Under the pieces are notes generated by a model. That model saw only the letters and a program-made list of their open reading frames with translations, had not been told where the DNA came from and made no database searches. Positions 1 to 58,427 of a stretch of DNA of 64,000 bases are shown piece by piece. The DNA lies in the NCBI GenBank assembly GCA_046349315.1, contig JAXMCQ010000005.1:161701-225700 (forward strand), given 5' to 3'. The position numbers and the translations under genes were made by a program. Source of the DNA: Hyphomicrobiales bacterium (lineage in GTDB: Bacteria; Pseudomonadota; Alphaproteobacteria; Rhizobiales; Aestuariivirgaceae). Positions within the stretch are counted from its first letter, which is position 1; the number at the start of each line of letters is the position of its first letter.

Positions 1-103
1 CTCCCATCATCGCCAGGCGACATTCTGAAGCTGTAAGCTTATAAGTGAAAGCCGGCTTGGGGAGGAGACAAATGAAGACGCGCTGTCACGCGCATGAAAT
101 GTC

Positions 104-128
104 CATGGCAGCCTTGAGCCCGCCATCC
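104..128. repeat. Hairpin repeat family C, copy 1 (CATGGCnGCC-TTGAG-nnnGCCATCC)
   Basis: The sequence is catggcagccttgagcccgccatcc. Related copies lie at 38761-38786 and 39202-39227. The arms ATGGC/GCCAT can pair. It sits 9 nt upstream of family A copy 1. Confidence 0.6.
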
Positions 129-137
129 GGCTGCATC

Positions 138-221
138 GTCATGCCAGCGGAAGCTGGCATCCCCTGACGCGGTGCCGCTAGCGGAAATGATTCAGGGGAC
201 CCCAGCTTTCGCTGGGGTGAC
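138..221. repeat. 84-bp palindromic MITE-like element, family A, copy 1
   Basis: It starts GTCATGCCAGCGGAAGCTGGCATCCCCTGA and ends TCAGGGGACCCCAGCTTTCGCTGGGGTGAC. These are ~30-bp imperfect terminal inverted repeats, and each is itself a stem-loop. The centre holds the palindrome CCGCTAGCGG. Same-orientation copies lie at 589-672 and 58330-58412. Confidence 0.85.
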
Positions 222-241
222 GGGATGGGTTAGCGTGCAGC

Positions 242-535
242 ATGGCCCGATCGCCTTGCGTCTACATAATGACCGACAAGCGACACGGCACGCTCTATGC
301 CGGCGTGAGCGCCGATCTGTCGCGGCGATCATGGGAGCACCGCGAAGGCCTCTACCCAGGTTTCACCAAGCGTTACGGGCTGAAATTGCTCATCTGGTAC
401 GAGTATCACGATCGCATGGAAGGAGCGATCGCGCGCGAGAAACAGATCAAATCATGGAAACGTGCCTGGAAGATTGAGCTGATCGAAAAGCTCAATCCGA
501 CCTGGCGTGATCTCTATGAGGAATTGAACCAGTAG
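242..535 (+). CDS. GIY-YIG nuclease family protein (small single-domain, 97 aa)
   Basis: ORF track, ATG at 242. The N-terminus CVYIMTDKRHGTLYAGVS...RRSWEH..G plus a conserved downstream Glu/Lys region fits the GIY-YIG fold (COG2827-like mini proteins). Confidence 0.85.
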   Translation: MARSPCVYIMTDKRHGTLYAGVSADLSRRSWEHREGLYPGFTKRYGLKLLIWYEYHDRMEGAIAREKQIKSWKRAWKIELIEKLNPTWRDLYEELNQ

Positions 536-588
536 CCGCCTTGCCAGCGAAAGCTATGTGACCGTTGAACCGCATTCCTTCCGACCCC

Positions 589-672
589 GTCATGCCAGCG
601 AAAGCTGGCATCCCCTGACGTGGTGCCGCTGGCGGAGATGATTCAGGGGGCCCCAGCTCTCGCTGGGGTGAC
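589..672. repeat. 84-bp palindromic MITE-like element, family A, copy 2
   Basis: By hand alignment it has 6 mismatches over 84 nt against copy 1, in the same orientation. A degenerate half-copy (ttgccagcgaaagctatgtg) lies at 541-560. It overlaps the 3' end of the ABC ATPase gene. Confidence 0.85.
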
Positions 673-2673
673 GGCAATGTTGTTTGGTGAAAGCAAATAA
701 CACCTTGCGCGGTGCGCCGCTTCAGGCGCGTTCCACTCCGGCATTTCATGCGCGCAAGGCTCGATGCGCTTGTTGCAACGACCGGCATAAGGGCAACCCC
801 GCGATACGATGTCATCGCTGTCGCGCGCCAATGCCGCACGATCGATCCTGTGATGCGTGTCAGGCTCGAGCACCGCAGCGATGAGCGCTTGCGTATAGGG
901 ATGAAGCGGCGCGCCGCACACCTGATGCGACGGCCCCAACTCGACCAGGCGCCCGCGATAGAGAACCGCGATGCGATGCGCCAATGCTTGGACGACGGCA
1001 AGGTCATGCGAGACGAGAATGCAGGCAACATGCCGCTTGCTGCTCAACTCGCGCAGCAAGCGCAGCACCGAGGCTTGCACCGAAACATCGAGCGCCGACG
1101 TCACCTCATCACAGAGTATGACGTCCGGTTCAGCGGCAAAGGCCCGCGCAATCGCCACGCGCTGGCGCTCGCCGCCCGATAATTGCCCGGGATAGCGGCC
1201 AAGATAGCTCTCATCGAGCCTGACATCGCGCAATAGCGTAGCAGCCCGTTCCCTCACCTCGGCACGCGATGATTTGAAATAGAGCCGCAAGGGCTGGGCA
1301 AGGATTTCTTCGATCGTCTGGCGCGGATTAAGCGAGGCATCCGGGTTCTGGAAGACGAGCTGAATAGCCCGCAATGTCGAGGATGATCTTTCATCGACCG
1401 GCACGGCGAGGTCGATCTTGTCTTCGAATTCGATCCGCCCGCGCGCCAACGGCCAGAGACCCGCAAGCACCTTGAGGATGGTCGACTTGCCGCTTCCCGA
1501 TTCACCGACCAATCCCAATACTTCGCCCTTGCGCAATTCGAGCGTGATGCCCTCAACCGTCATCGGCACGTTGCGTGCGGGCAAGAACCGGTCGAACAGG
1601 CCGGGACGGCGATAGGTCACCGATACCGACTCAAGGTCGAGCAACGCCTTGTCGCCGATAATTTTAGGCGGCCCATCATCATGAGTCACAGCAATCGCGA
1701 GCGCGCCGGTCTCCGGATAAAAGCAGGCGACATGGCCGGCCATCACCTCGCGCAGTTCCGGGGCAGCGGCGAGGCATTGCGATTGCGCCTTCGAGCAGCG
1801 CGGCGCGAAGCGGCAGCCGGGCAGTTTCTGACCCGGCGCCGGCGGTCTTCCCGGGATCGATTGCGGGATCGTCGCGCTGTCGAGCCGCGGGATCGAACCC
1901 AAGAGTGCGCGGGCATAAGGATGCGCCGGCTGCGCCAGGAGATCGGAGGTGGCGCGCTCTTCGACGATCCGGCCGGCATACATGACAACCATGCGTGCGC
2001 TCAATCGCGCGATGACGCCGAGGTCATGGCTGACGCAGACCATTGCCATGCCGGTTGCATCGCGCAATTCAATCAGGAGATCGAGAATGCCGAGCTGTGT
2101 CGTGACATCGAGGCCGGTTGTCGGTTCATCGAGGAGGAGGAGTTCGGGCTCGCCCGCAAGCGCCATCGCGACGGCAACGCGCTGCAACTGGCCGCCCGAC
2201 AATTCATGCGGATAGCGGCGCACCATGAGATCAGGAGTCGGCAGGCGTACGCGCCGCAGGAGATCGATAACGCGCTTGCTGCGCTCGGTTGCGTTGAGTT
2301 TGGTGTGAAGCCGCAAGGCCTCGCCGATCTGCGCGCCGATGCGCGATGTCGGCGTCAAGGCCGTGCCGGCATTCTGCGGCACCAGCGCCATGCGGCCGCC
2401 GCGAATATGAGACAGCGCCGCATCATCGCGATTGAGAAGCTCGGTGTCCTCGAACCGGCAATGACCGCCGGCATGGAAAAGACCGGGCTTGATGATGCCC
2501 ATCATGGCAAGCAGCAAGGTGCTTTTCCCGCAGCCGGACTCGCCTGCAATGCCGAGCGTCTCGCCTTTCGCAAGCGAGAGCGAGACATGATCGACGATCG
2601 GCGCCGGGCCTGTTGCAAGCGGCATGGCGATCGTGAGATCGGAGACTTCGAGGAGCGGCAGTCGTTTGCTCAC
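643..2673 (-). CDS. ABC transporter ATP-binding protein, fused double ATPase (Dpp/Opp peptide/nickel type)
   Basis: ORF 643..3153 trimmed to the GTG at 2671-2673, which overlaps the upstream permease stop (GTGA). It has two Walker A motifs (GESGCGKST, GESGSGKST) and two signature motifs (LSGGQLQR, LSGGERQR). The last ~10 codons and the TGA lie inside repeat copy 2. Confidence 0.9.
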   Translation of the reverse strand: MSKRLPLLEVSDLTIAMPLATGPAPIVDHVSLSLAKGETLGIAGESGCGKSTLLLAMMGIIKPGLFHAGGHCRFEDTELLNRDDAALSHIRGGRMALVPQNAGTALTPTSRIGAQIGEALRLHTKLNATERSKRVIDLLRRVRLPTPDLMVRRYPHELSGGQLQRVAVAMALAGEPELLLLDEPTTGLDVTTQLGILDLLIELRDATGMAMVCVSHDLGVIARLSARMVVMYAGRIVEERATSDLLAQPAHPYARALLGSIPRLDSATIPQSIPGRPPAPGQKLPGCRFAPRCSKAQSQCLAAAPELREVMAGHVACFYPETGALAIAVTHDDGPPKIIGDKALLDLESVSVTYRRPGLFDRFLPARNVPMTVEGITLELRKGEVLGLVGESGSGKSTILKVLAGLWPLARGRIEFEDKIDLAVPVDERSSSTLRAIQLVFQNPDASLNPRQTIEEILAQPLRLYFKSSRAEVRERAATLLRDVRLDESYLGRYPGQLSGGERQRVAIARAFAAEPDVILCDEVTSALDVSVQASVLRLLRELSSKRHVACILVSHDLAVVQALAHRIAVLYRGRLVELGPSHQVCGAPLHPYTQALIAAVLEPDTHHRIDRAALARDSDDIVSRGCPYAGRCNKRIEPCAHEMPEWNAPEAAHRARCYLLSPNNIAVTPARAGAP

Positions 2674-3521
2674 GGCACCGGCGACCTTTGCACACGATCG
2701 ACGCCCAGGACCTTGGCCAGCGAATCGACCGCGAGATTGATGCCGATGATGAGGCTGCTGAGCGCCAGCATCGGCCACACCGCCGTCCAGGGAGCGGCTG
2801 CCATGACGCCGCGCGCATCCGAGATCATCAAGCCCCAATCGGGCGCTGGCGGCGCGACTCCCATACCGAGAAAGGAGAGCGAGCTGACGGCAAGGATGAT
2901 CCACGACCATTGCATGGCGCCCTGCACGGCGAGACTGTCGCGCACATTGGGGAGCAGTTCTTTCAGGATGATGGTCCGGCGCGTTTCGCCGCGCGCCTTC
3001 GCCGCGAGAACGAAATCGCGGGTGACGAAATCGAGTGCGGCACTGCGTGCGAGATAGATGACGGAAAGCCCATAGGAGAAACCGAGCACCGGGATCAGCG
3101 CTGTCGTGCCGGTACCAAGGGCTGCGACGAAAATCATGACGATCAGGATCCACGGGATCGACATCAAGGCATCGGTGCAGCGCATGACGATTTCATCGAG
3201 GCGGCCGCCGACCAGAGCGACGACGATGCCGAGAATGGCACCCCAGATCATTGCAACGATCGTCGCGGCCGTGCTGATCAGCATCGCCTCGCGCCCGCCG
3301 AGCAATGTGCGGGCGAAGACGTCGCGGCCGAGACGGTCGGTTCCGAACCAATGTGCGGCCGACGGCGCTTGCAGGATCGCATCGACATCCTGCTGCGCAT
3401 AATCATAGGGCGCGATCGCCGGGCCGATGATGGCGATAAGGATATGGAAGAGCACGATGCCGAGCCCGATCGCCCCCGAGGGCCGCGAGACGAGATTGCG
3501 CATGAGGGCGACGCCGCTCAT
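2670..3521 (-). CDS. ABC transporter permease (DppC/OppC-like)
   Basis: ORF 2670..4268 trimmed to the ATG at 3519-3521 (ATGA overlap with the upstream stop). The 283-aa product is multi-TM and looks like a binding-protein-dependent permease. Confidence 0.88.
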   Translation of the reverse strand: MSGVALMRNLVSRPSGAIGLGIVLFHILIAIIGPAIAPYDYAQQDVDAILQAPSAAHWFGTDRLGRDVFARTLLGGREAMLISTAATIVAMIWGAILGIVVALVGGRLDEIVMRCTDALMSIPWILIVMIFVAALGTGTTALIPVLGFSYGLSVIYLARSAALDFVTRDFVLAAKARGETRRTIILKELLPNVRDSLAVQGAMQWSWIILAVSSLSFLGMGVAPPAPDWGLMISDARGVMAAAPWTAVWPMLALSSLIIGINLAVDSLAKVLGVDRVQRSPVP

Positions 3522-38821: not shown

Positions 38822-38916
38822 GTCATTGCCGGACTTGGTCCGGCAATCCAACGATCAACCAACTCAGTTTACGGAGTGTCGGCACAATGGATCGCCGGAA
38901 TGAATCCGGCGATGAC
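38822..38916. repeat. 95-bp palindromic element with family-A architecture (variant A')
   Basis: Its ends are gtcattgccggacttggtccggcaatcca ... tggatcgccggaatgaatccggcgatgac. It has the same GTCAT-hairpin-ATCC / GGAT-hairpin-ATGAC termini as family A. Confidence 0.7.
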
Positions 38917-40200: not shown

Positions 40201-40295
40201 GTCATCCCGGCGTAAGCCGGGACCCAACTATCCGCGTGAAGGCTGTTGGCGATCCATCACGGTGAAAGATGGGTCCCGGCTTTCGCCGGGATAAC
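40201..40295. repeat. 95-bp palindromic element, family B
   Basis: Its ends are gtcatcccggcgtaagccgggaccca ... tgggtcccggctttcgccgggataac, with the same architecture as family A. A solo half-copy tggatcccggctttcgccgggatgac lies at 40391-40416. Confidence 0.7.
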
Positions 40296-40312
40296 GGTGG
40301 TTGGTTGTTCAA

Positions 40313-40480
40313 CCCCTCACTCGCCCCGGATTAAATCCGGGGCACCCTCTCCCGCAAGGGGAGAGGGGAAATGCTCCGTAGGCGGAAAGATGGATCCCGG
40401 CTTTCGCCGGGATGACGGTGGTGAGTGGTTCTGCCCTCACCCGGCGCTTCGCGCCACCCTCTCCCGCGCTATGCGCGGGC
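40313..40480. repeat. Mosaic of family D half-elements and a family B half-copy
   Basis: It contains cccctcac..gccccggattaaatccggggc..accctctcccgcaaggggagagggga, then a B half-copy, then ccctcacccggcgcttcgcgccaccctctccc (compare 38692-38722). Confidence 0.6.
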
Positions 40481-54401: not shown

Positions 54402-55024
54402 GCCGCATCATTGATATTTCGCAACCGCTCGATCCCGGCATGGCGGGATTCCCGGGCGATACCCCGTACCAGGAAGCGCAGACCTTTCGCATCGGGCCGA
54501 ACTGTCCGGTCAATGTCGCGCAAATATCATTGTCGGTGCATTGCGGCACCCATGCCGATGCGCCCTTGCATTATGCCGCCGATGGCAAGCCGATCGGCGC
54601 ACTCGATCTCGAACCCTTCATCGGCCCTTGCCGGGTGATCGATGCACGTGGCATGGGCCCGCTTTGTGAACCGCAGCAGATCGAGGCGTATCTCAAGGAT
54701 GCACCATCGCGCATTCTCCTGCGCCTGACCGACGGATTCGATCCGCATGTCTGGCCGACAGGCTTTCGCGCGCTGTCCGCCGCAACTATCGAGTTGCTGA
54801 CCTCGCGCAGCGTGCGTCTCGTCGGCATCGATACACCCTCCGTCGATCCTGAAACCTCGAAAGACCTGCCGGCCCATAACGCGGCTTTGCGCACCGACAT
54901 GCGCATCCTCGAAAATCTTGTCCTAACGCATGTCGCTCAAGGCGACTATGAACTGATCGCGCTCCCCTTGCGCTTCTCGAACCTCGACGCCTCGCCGGTC
55001 CGCGCCGTGCTCCGCACAGTGTAA
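54398..55024 (+). CDS. kynB: Kynurenine formamidase (cyclase family)
   Basis: 208 aa. The GTG overlaps the kynU stop. It has the metal-binding motif HCGTHADAPLHY. Confidence 0.85.
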   Translation: MSRIIDISQPLDPGMAGFPGDTPYQEAQTFRIGPNCPVNVAQISLSVHCGTHADAPLHYAADGKPIGALDLEPFIGPCRVIDARGMGPLCEPQQIEAYLKDAPSRILLRLTDGFDPHVWPTGFRALSAATIELLTSRSVRLVGIDTPSVDPETSKDLPAHNAALRTDMRILENLVLTHVAQGDYELIALPLRFSNLDASPVRAVLRTV

Positions 55025-55026
55025 TT

Positions 55027-55073
55027 CCCTCGCCCCGGTGGGGCGAGGGAGGGGCCCGTTGCGAAGCAACGGG
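55027..55073. repeat. Two adjacent GC hairpins between the convergent kynB and DUF559 genes
   Basis: ccctcgcccc-ggtg-gggcgaggg (family D-like) and cccgttgc-gaa-gcaacggg. There is no U-run, so terminator function is uncertain. Confidence 0.5.
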
Positions 55074-55086
55074 AGGGTGCGGGGGA

Positions 55087-55470
55087 TCAGGTGCATCCGA
55101 TAATCGACAGGTCAGTTTTAGGGACACGCGCAAACTTGTCGGGTTCAATCAGGGAGCGGATTGTTTCAGGAACACCATCCAGATTATCGAATGCTTCTCT
55201 ATTCCAGAATCTCACCACGATGTAGCCCGCGGCCTCAACCTCGCGCGTGCGGGCCCCATCTTCCACTTTGCGCTCGGCATGCTGGCCACCATCAAGTTCG
55301 ATAATCAAGCGCGCATCAGTACTGATGAAATCAGCGATATAGTTTAGGATTGGAACTTGTCGACGAAATTTCCGTCCGCACAACTGGCGGTTCCCCAGCC
55401 TCGACCACAGAAGAGCTTCCGCACTTGTCTGATCCCGTCGTAGTCGTCGCGCGGTATGATGCGTTGGCAT
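55087..55470 (-). CDS. DUF559 domain endonuclease-like protein (Vsr-like fold)
   Basis: 127 aa. The pattern ARRLRRDQTSAEALLWSRL..R.L.G.KFRRQ..I..YIADF......LIIELDG..H is typical of DUF559. It is visibly more AT-rich than its flanks. Confidence 0.85.
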   Translation of the reverse strand: MPTHHTARRLRRDQTSAEALLWSRLGNRQLCGRKFRRQVPILNYIADFISTDARLIIELDGGQHAERKVEDGARTREVEAAGYIVVRFWNREAFDNLDGVPETIRSLIEPDKFARVPKTDLSIIGCT

Positions 55471-55524: not shown

Positions 55525-55561
55525 CCCCCTCACCCTAACCCTCTCCCCGCCGGGGAGAGGG
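55525..55561. repeat. Family D half-element upstream of DUF559 gene
   Basis: ccccctcaccctaaccctctccccgccggggagaggg. Confidence 0.6.
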
Positions 55562-55603
55562 AACTTCATTTTCCGTCGCCCCTTTTGGAGGAGGAAGAAA
55601 AAG

Positions 55604-58324: not shown

Positions 58325-58329
58325 TTTCC

Positions 58330-58412
58330 GTCATGCCAGCGAAAGCTGGCATCCCCTGAGAATGTGCCGTTACTGAAATGATTCAGGGGACCCCAGCTTT
58401 CGCTGGGGTGAC
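58330..58412. repeat. 83-bp palindromic MITE-like element, family A, copy 3
   Basis: Its termini are identical or near-identical to copies 1 and 2, and its centre has diverged. It fills most of the 103-nt hyuA-hyuB spacer. Confidence 0.85.
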
Positions 58413-58427
58413 GATGAAGAAAATTCG

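Follow-up and report, generated by a model that had tools for sequence, protein, structure and literature searches.

The 64-kb stretch of DNA analysed here (the window, from contig JAXMCQ010000005.1) carries near its start a small gene encoding a 97-residue GIY-YIG protein, which lies between two copies of an 87-nt repeat built from hairpin-forming modules. We consider it very probable that the locus is an ssnA-type gene situated within its cognate Ssn-related motif (SRM) repeats, on the basis of its anatomy, homology, catalytic residues, motif match and cross-taxon gene-repeat statistics. The association of such genes with such repeats was characterised in 2025, including the analogy to REP, RAYT and insertion sequence (IS) elements (Chenal et al., Nat Commun 2025, PMC11893778). 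The window locus is thus a new example of it, and the view of a preliminary description of this stretch, that the association was uncharacterised, has to be given up. Feature coordinates are collected in Table 1.

The gene and its flanking repeats

A repeat search of the window located the two copies at 137-223 and 588-674. They have the same orientation, are 93 % identical (6 mismatches) and enclose the open reading frame (ORF) 242-535 on the plus strand, as the preliminary description had stated. A third copy, placed by the same description 58 kb away, was confirmed by BLASTN at 58329-58413, with 91 and 87 % identity to copies one and two, respectively; beyond these three full copies of the family (family A), BLASTN gave no further full one in the 64 kb. 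A half-copy had also been reported after the stop codon. It does exist, as a 20-nt fragment in which the hairpin ends after the loop, but its position is 536-555 and not 541-560.

Each 87-nt repeat is made up of two modules facing in opposite directions, in which CGTCA is followed by a hairpin of 7-8 bp and TCC. The left module reads in general form CGTCA TGCCAGC GRAA GCTGGCA TCC on the plus strand and the right module CGTCA CCCCAGC GAAA GCTGGGG TCC on the minus strand, and the segments between the modules, TCCCCTGA and TCAGGGGA, pair with each other. The repeats are imperfect palindromes (in 137-223, arms 137-183 and 176-222, 79 % complementary). When folded as single-stranded DNA (ssDNA), each repeat end alone formed an 8-bp hairpin (-9.2 and -9.6 kcal/mol, z -4.3 and -4.8), and the whole doublet reached -27 to -32 kcal/mol (z -4.6 to -8.6 compared to shuffles), which bears out the earlier account of an inverted-repeat element with a stem-loop at each end. 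The stems TGCCAGC/GCTGGCA (left) and CCCCAGC/GCTGGGG (right) are present in all three family-A copies, again as described. The two-base difference between left and right stems leaves the local hairpins perfect and weakens the left-right pairing, which fits selection acting on the local hairpins. However, the supposedly compensatory difference is, within the window, one inherited family feature and not three independent events; real covariation is found only across other genomes, with 27 stems in one GTCA...TCC frame.

ORF 242-535 is the sole GIY-YIG ORF of the window. Its product matches the GIY-YIG domain PF01541 over residues 5-78 (E=4.6e-13) and no other Pfam entry, and an NCBIfam search of the protein gave no match. 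The AlphaFold2 (AF2) model is one compact domain (predicted local distance difference test score, pLDDT, 95), and the nearest solved folds are UPF0213, Slx1 and UvrC-N. Homologous loci, referred to by L numbers, were collected by an exact-protein look-up and a scan of one genome per species, and 85 of them were compared. Residues Y8, Y19, E66, R29, H33 and N85 are invariant among 31 homologues, the protein is about 60 % identical across phyla, and the ratio of nonsynonymous to synonymous substitution (dN/dS) is 0.04 for the gene compared to that of L002, indicating strong purifying selection on the protein. In the L002 copy itself (2974-3267), Asn replaces the first catalytic Tyr (Y8N), and gene callers begin at Met10 (88 residues). 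This copy may be catalytically dead, by analogy with the equivalent Y6A change in SsnA of N. meningitidis (Nm SsnA), in which cutting is lost and binding retained (PMC11893778).

Probable membership in the Ssn family and linkage to the repeats

The window protein is 54 % identical over 91 residues to the 94-residue SsnA ORF of N. gonorrhoeae (E=4e-39 pairwise), and tblastn retrieved the same ORF from plasmid and chromosome records at E=6e-28. Around this ORF the gonococcal locus has 16 modules of the form GTCA TTCCCGC...GCGGGAA TCYAG in 1.6 kb, an array which we take to be the neisserial dRS3 repeat. Judging from its length, its Y6, Y17 and E64 and its context, the gonococcal ORF is probably the orthologue of NMV_0044. 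Y8, Y19 and E66 of the window protein align with these three residues, and in Nm SsnA the changes Y6A, Y17A and E64A each abolish cutting (PMC11893778).

The Ssn family has been defined via cd10448 (GIY-YIG_unchar_3) of the Conserved Domain Database (CDD), with E<1e-10 as the homology criterion (PMC11893778), and both E values obtained here are below that limit. The Neisseria SsnA is a 94-residue GIY-YIG protein that binds the NTS/dRS3 repeat, defined as CGTCATTCCCGCGMAVGCGGGAATCYRG, solely as ssDNA and on one strand; it does not bind the RNA form of the repeat, and it cleaves a few nucleotides upstream of it (PMC11893778). Cutting depends most on the three bases before the palindrome and binding most on the C after it, the family as a whole cuts ssDNA only, and SsnA reduces transformation by NTS-bearing DNA (PMC11893778). 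The window protein has the corresponding build, a single domain of about 90-100 residues to which no DNA-binding domain is attached.

The published SRM pattern, HGTCWY..YYVSBRH..WNVSBRG..RNCYNB (PMC11893778), has 5 matches in the window compared to 0.61 expected from shuffles. It occurs once on each side of the gene, at 195-222 (minus strand) and 588-615 (plus strand), and SRM repeats thus stand on both sides. We place the locus in the Ssn/SRM kind because of this pattern match together with the homology, the catalytic residues and the single-domain build. The sequence allows the product of 242-535, a 'GIY-YIG nuclease family protein', to be named a putative Ssn-family ssDNA endonuclease and the 87-nt repeats SRM doublets; the other GTCA-hairpin families of the window can be read likewise.

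The linkage between gene and repeat extends well beyond this locus. At L002 a 91 % identical protein is encoded among unrelated neighbour genes, and the full layout of doublet, gene, truncated module and doublet is repeated. The similarity between the window and L002 starts exactly at CGTCATGCC (137) and stops at GGTGACGG (675). The module truncation is identical in L002 (3287-3306) and was thus inherited by both cassettes. The flanking doublets of the two loci are 94-97 % identical, compared to 84 % for the gene DNA, for which dS is about 1, i.e. synonymous sites are near saturation. The repeat sequence must therefore be constrained or homogenised, and its conservation accords with the report that SsnA recognises its repeat sequence-specifically.

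In 28 of 51 homologous loci the 350-nt upstream and downstream flanks were alike (E<=1e-5), compared to 5 of 318 control positions in the same loci, and the common unit of the flanks was always GTCA, a hairpin and TCC. The density of GTCA with a hairpin was 1.52/kb within 400 bp of the gene and 0.23/kb in the rest of the loci, a 6.6-fold difference, whereas hairpins behind the 23 other permutations of the tetramer G, T, C, A did not exceed 0.30/kb. The hairpin scan demanded perfect stems; the linkage statistic therefore rests on the tetramer-permutation control, and the count of 27 stems shows stem diversity and is no unbiased test of covariation. Among the 25 closest homologues, 22 had at least one module within 400 bp and 15 had modules on both sides. 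The 60 modules have 27 different stems in one frame, with C before GTCA in 42 and the TCC tail in 39. The stem family shifts with the protein clade while the frame is constant, and distant copies in a contig usually share the stem family of the gene-adjacent copies. The association of gene and repeat is not due to chance.

These results agree with the published survey, in which at least one SRM was near 71 % of the bacterial homologues, on both sides in 42 %, and a homologue was encoded in 81 % of genomes with more than 200 SRMs (PMC11893778). The suggestion that the nuclease and its flanking repeats belong together in a REP/RAYT-like layout is thus upheld, both by the 85 loci and by the biochemistry of SsnA (PMC11893778). 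It had been added that homologues without flanking repeats, or repeat-rich genomes without the gene, would speak against the link. Both occur to some extent, as 29 % of homologues are without a nearby SRM and 19 % of SRM-rich genomes are without the gene (PMC11893778), and the link is not overturned by them.

Some loci showed further arrangements. In L083 an IS30-like element (1706-2826; HTH_38 and rve, 1707-2717) has inserted into the doublet 3' of the Ssn homologue and separates the left module from the right. Tandem repeats of about 97 bp, with a short doublet in each, are present in L001 (3296-3830), several left modules in tandem with a 41-nt period in L131 (3667-3814), and a tandem copy of gene fragment and module in S. 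meliloti L207 (2701-3460). The metagenome contig JAESFU010000846.1 is syntenic with the window at 87-89 %.

Proposed activity and alternative explanations

The activity of the window protein, its cut sites and its role in the host can be proposed by analogy with four tested homologues. Like the Neisseria and Wolbachia enzymes tested, the protein would ignore duplex DNA and RNA. A module would fold once its DNA is single-stranded, at a replication fork, in repair or on entry by conjugation or transformation, and the protein would bind the folded hairpin together with the CGTCA leader and TC tail, reading the stem sequence and the oriented flanks, and would nick the bound strand a few nucleotides 5' of CGTCA. 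Cuts are predicted on the plus strand just left of 137, 588 and 58329 and on the minus strand just right of 222, 673 and 58413. The cut pairs of the cassette (137/588 on plus, 222/673 on minus) would each be 451 nt apart and each span one doublet and the gene. In the host the protein may restrict SRM-bearing single strands that enter the cell, as is the case in Neisseria, and/or maintain and spread the repeats. In a set of 54 doublets (from L086-L165 and the window), the approximately 10 nt outside the ends, within which an Ssn enzyme would cut, are strand-asymmetric: G is scarce left of CGTCA and C is scarce right of TGACG.

Some observations weigh against the assignment or the mechanism built on it. 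Two of the four flanking modules (137-164 and 646-673) are off the SRM pattern by one position. Seen from the repeats, the linkage is weak in absolute numbers, as the gene was near only 2 of 80 metagenome loci containing the exact left module. Most repeat copies are gene-less doublets of 57-100 nt, and so low a gene presence is to be expected for a dispersed repeat, most copies of which, if active, act far from the gene. Nm SsnA reads the stem sequence besides the shape, and homologues vary in specificity and exact cut site (PMC11893778); because of this variation the cut positions proposed here are extrapolated. The transformation-limiting role known from Neisseria need not hold for an alphaproteobacterium-like host.

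The preliminary description also raised the possibility that the nuclease mobilises the repeats, a claim that is unproven. Such a reading would extend, not replace, the assignment to Ssn. On this view, hairpins would form the ends of an autonomous mobile element, SRM-ssn-SRM, from which the gene-less doublets of 57-100 nt would derive as non-autonomous forms (cf. MITE and IS, REPIN and RAYT); Ssn would nick the element ends on ssDNA, and the move would be completed by host replication or repair. We regard this as possible, though on balance doubtful. The cassette 137-675 recurs in L002 amid unrelated genes with the exact ends and truncated module given above, and the neighbours of six close homologues (74-100 % identical) are all different. 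In 10 of the 15 two-sided loci, the commoner layout, the gene lies inside a single inverted pair, the distance from the plus-strand module to the start of the protein match being 40-172 nt and that from the end of the match to the minus-strand module 12-109 nt. Terminal inverted repeats (TIRs) are present, the doublets being imperfect palindromes and the gene-bearing L095 and L131 having TIRs of 30-45 nt; the unit in L095 is complete at about 380 bp, and gene-less doublets such as L089, L096 and L099 have the same left (about 31 nt) and right (about 29 nt) ends. One 25-nt module is found unchanged in contigs of 43 % and 65 % GC, and one orthologous intergenic site has a doublet in the relative L116 and none in the window. 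The Y8N change in the GIY motif of L002 is as expected of decaying copies. An IS-like idea was raised in the published discussion as well, in which NTS-ssnA-NTS is likened to an insertion sequence and RAYT, REP and BIME are compared (PMC11893778).

However, no target-site duplication was found in the 54 doublets, matches between the two flanks of a copy being no commoner than between flanks of different copies. An all-against-all comparison of 208 sequences, with window/L116 as the one informative syntenic pair, gave no clean empty site; in this single pair one doublet is conserved, and the polymorphic site is a wholesale replacement of the spacer. The hyuA-hyuB doublet has been stable in place over about 12 % sequence divergence. 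To our knowledge, GIY-YIG nucleases hydrolyse DNA and have no strand-transfer or ligation step, and the joining step of the proposed movement is therefore without a candidate enzyme. The strong purifying selection and the identity across phyla fit a host function as well as a selfish one. If the idea were correct, no smaller autonomous mobile elements would be known from bacteria than these units of about 380-540 bp, which a GIY-YIG hydrolase would move via ssDNA. The doublets (57-100 nt, with CGTCA...TGACG at the ends and without target duplication) would descend from them as gene-less forms, and the system would have converged on the RAYT/REPIN design with another nuclease fold. The question behind it is by what route SRM copies come to number hundreds, and whether it is Ssn that spreads them. 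It is sharpened, though not settled, by the exact ends of the cassette, by gene-less doublets that have both termini in common with gene-bearing units, and by repeats much better conserved than the synonymous sites of the gene.

A different origin of the layout, which we consider unlikely, is that the gene is a free-standing homing-type endonuclease for which repeats already present, and spread by other means, are no more than landing sites. A doublet-gene-doublet template would serve in the repair of a broken or gapped solo doublet, by which the gene is copied in and the target regenerated on both sides. In the window, L002, L011, L018 and L085 the gene does lie between two complete direct doublets, the expected repair product, distant Bacteroidota GIY-YIG mini-genes lie between a tRNA gene and its second copy, which would follow the same logic with another target, and in S. 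meliloti the whole unit is tandemly repeated. Repair from a two-doublet template leaves, however, the commoner single-inverted-pair layout unexplained, and protein clades and stem families change together, which favours a cognate pair over opportunistic use. Known GIY-YIG homing enzymes have a separate DNA-binding domain and cut duplex DNA. The window protein is a bare 97-residue domain with neither a tethered DNA-binding domain nor a phage, intron or organelle setting, and its family cuts ssDNA only (PMC11893778). A tblastn search of 50,697 phage records gave no homologue of the window protein, and a phage origin of the gene was rejected on this ground.

Much less probable still is that the hairpins act in RNA, as terminators, stabilisers or processing signals, and that the nuclease is unrelated to them. 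The doublets fold strongly and occupy intergenic spacers, one of them inside an operon at 58.3 kb, as would suit such a function. However, the hairpins have no T-tract, and a scan of 1-900 for intrinsic terminators did not detect the doublets. Known RNA families were rejected as well: at the Rfam gathering score there was no match in the window, and 19 related loci gave one tRNA match only. SsnA does not bind the RNA form, and a function in RNA gives no account of an oriented CGTCA/TCC frame that is tied to one protein family across phyla (PMC11893778 for the binding). A promoter scan of 1-900 found no promoter-like site. Finally, that an abundant REP-like repeat merely happens to flank a small gene has a negligible probability and is refuted by the flank, density and published genome-wide statistics (PMC11893778) and by the finding that two of only three family-A copies in 64 kb flank the sole GIY-YIG gene, although repeats of this type are frequent between the genes of these genomes (L016, for instance, has 14 modules within 8 kb).

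Further features of the window and comparison with known systems

Table 1 Features of the ssnA-like locus and related repeats in the 64-kb window
Feature	Position	Strand	Description
SRM doublet 1, 5' of gene	137..223		left module 137-164 (+), right module 195-222 (-)
Doublet 1, left module	137-164	+	CGTCA TGCCAGC GGAA GCTGGCA TCCCC
Doublet 1, right module	195-222	-	CGTCA CCCCAGC GAAA GCTGGGG TCCCC; fits published SRM pattern
Doublet 1, central stem			TCCCCTGA...TCAGGGGA, between both modules
ssnA-like gene	242..535	+	putative 97-aa single-domain GIY-YIG nuclease; Y8, Y19, R29, H33, E66, N85 conserved
Truncated left module	536..555	+	CCGCCTTGCCAGCGAAAGCT; directly 3' of stop codon; 20-nt partial copy
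SRM doublet 2, 3' of gene	588..674		left module 588-615 (+), right module 646-673 (-)
Doublet of another GTCA-hairpin-TCC family	38822..38916		stems TTGCCGGAC / TCGCCGGA; same stem type flanks Ssn homologue in L010
Third-family modules (stem TCCCGGC)	40201-40222, 40395-40416	+, -	same module flanks Ssn homologue in L005
Solo SRM doublet, same family as gene flanks	58329..58413		no nuclease gene nearby

The stop codon (643-645) of a minus-strand ABC-transporter ATPase ORF, which runs from 3153 down to 643, falls within doublet 2. About 11 terminal codons of this ORF (643-674) lie within the repeat, and it reads through a terminator-like hairpin at 715-700 before its stop. A perfect 13-nt inverted match, CGCGCATGAAATG, is located outside the cassette on both sides (89-101 and 742-754), and aligning its surroundings gave no extension. 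The solo doublet occupies the spacer between two minus-strand hydantoinase-type genes and is kept at the same site in the syntenic relative L116.

The two other GTCA-hairpin families (38822-38916 and 40201-40416) have no nuclease gene nearby. They are interleaved with hairpins of the CCCTCTCCC family, and the three together form a BIME/NIME-like mosaic; 40390-40417 fits the published SRM pattern. The stems shared with the flanks of L010 and L005 suggest further ssn paralogues elsewhere in the source genome. We treat these families as leads and not as findings.

The same applies to two groups of other mini-nucleases. A 127-residue DUF559 ORF (Vsr-like, PD-(D/E)xK) at 55087-55470 on the minus strand lies inside 37-nt inverted arms (55013-55049 and 55539-55575), each of which carries the hairpin CCCTC(G/T)CCCC..GGGG(C/A)GAGGG. 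The window contains 7 copies of this hairpin family, where 0 are expected (38977, 39103, 40345, 46059, 46186, 55027 and 55539); of the five outside the arms, four are arranged in two gene-less pairs with a spacing of about 126 nt (38977/39103 and 46059/46186). L116, the syntenic relative, is without the DUF559 insert, and the only two other DUF559 ORFs in all sequence examined (L042, about 1093-1380; L030, about 2310-2604) are also within hairpin-bearing inverted repeats. The DUF559 mini-gene may represent a second, unrelated system of a mini-nuclease plus hairpin repeat, on which we found no publication.

The second group comprises GIY-YIG mini-genes of Bacteroidota, Patescibacteria and Verrucomicrobiota (L052-L082, e.g. 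L058 3874-4304, L077 3890-4309, L061 3854-4310 and L059 141-659), whose products have 80-95 residues and share 35-44 % identity with the window protein. They start 30-60 nt after a tRNA-Pro, Val or Ile gene, and some continue into another copy of that tRNA, partial or variant. Flank repeats with E<=1e-5 were present in 19 of 25 of these loci and an SRM in none. tRNA genes were also considered as the flanking repeats of the close relatives; there are none in the flanks of L001-L051, and they occur only in the distant Bacteroidota-type relatives. The tRNA-flanked mini-genes are not mentioned in the Ssn paper (PMC11893778).

Several known systems can be compared with the ssnA-like locus. With the GIY-YIG homing endonucleases (I-TevI, I-BmoI and the Seg proteins) it shares the catalytic domain and the small, selfish-looking gene between genes, whereas those enzymes have a C-terminal DNA-binding domain, cut duplex DNA and belong to phage or organelle genomes. 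UPF0213 (YhbQ/BH0048) and Slx1 have the nearest solved folds, and Slx1 is a structure-selective nuclease. The identity to them is, however, only about 24 % (sequence E=0.03), and neither has a known repeat partnership; Slx1 moreover cleaves branched duplex DNA and depends on Slx4 and additional domains.

The IS200/IS605 'peel and paste' elements would resemble the locus in subterminal hairpins recognised on ssDNA, offset cleavage and the lack of a target-site duplication. They differ in enzyme fold and chemistry and in that their ends are not mutual inverted repeats, and transposition has been demonstrated only for them. With REP/REPIN-RAYT the locus has in common one small nuclease gene within inverted hairpin repeats, a tetranucleotide 5' of the hairpin (GTAG in REP, GTCA here) and many gene-less copies, often as inverted doublets; by analogy, the enzyme may in both cases act on folded single strands. 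The window protein is, however, not an HUH-Y1 (IS200/IS605-type) transposase, and the likeness is in layout only. RAYT is an HUH/Y1 enzyme with a covalent intermediate and can rejoin DNA, whereas Ssn is a non-homologous GIY-YIG hydrolase with no known joining activity.

The closest counterpart is the Ssn/NTS system of Neisseria. The biochemistry of the family comes from other members, the window member being known from its sequence alone, and its host resembles a soil alphaproteobacterium, in which the relevant ssDNA may have a source other than natural transformation. The dRS3/NIME arrays of Neisseria consist of the same module class, but in place of NIME-type arrays the window has isolated two-module doublets with a paired central stem. 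Both systems have a single-domain GIY-YIG protein of about 95 residues with the same catalytic Tyr/Tyr/Glu, at the 54 % identity given above, and oriented hairpin repeats on both sides of the gene with a CGTCA leader, a TC(C) tail and many gene-less copies. The stems are TGCCAGC/CCCCAGC in the window and TTCCCGC in Neisseria. The locus would thus add an enzyme/site pair whose stem differs from those tested so far, which is of practical interest because Ssn enzymes are under development as site-specific ssDNA cutters.

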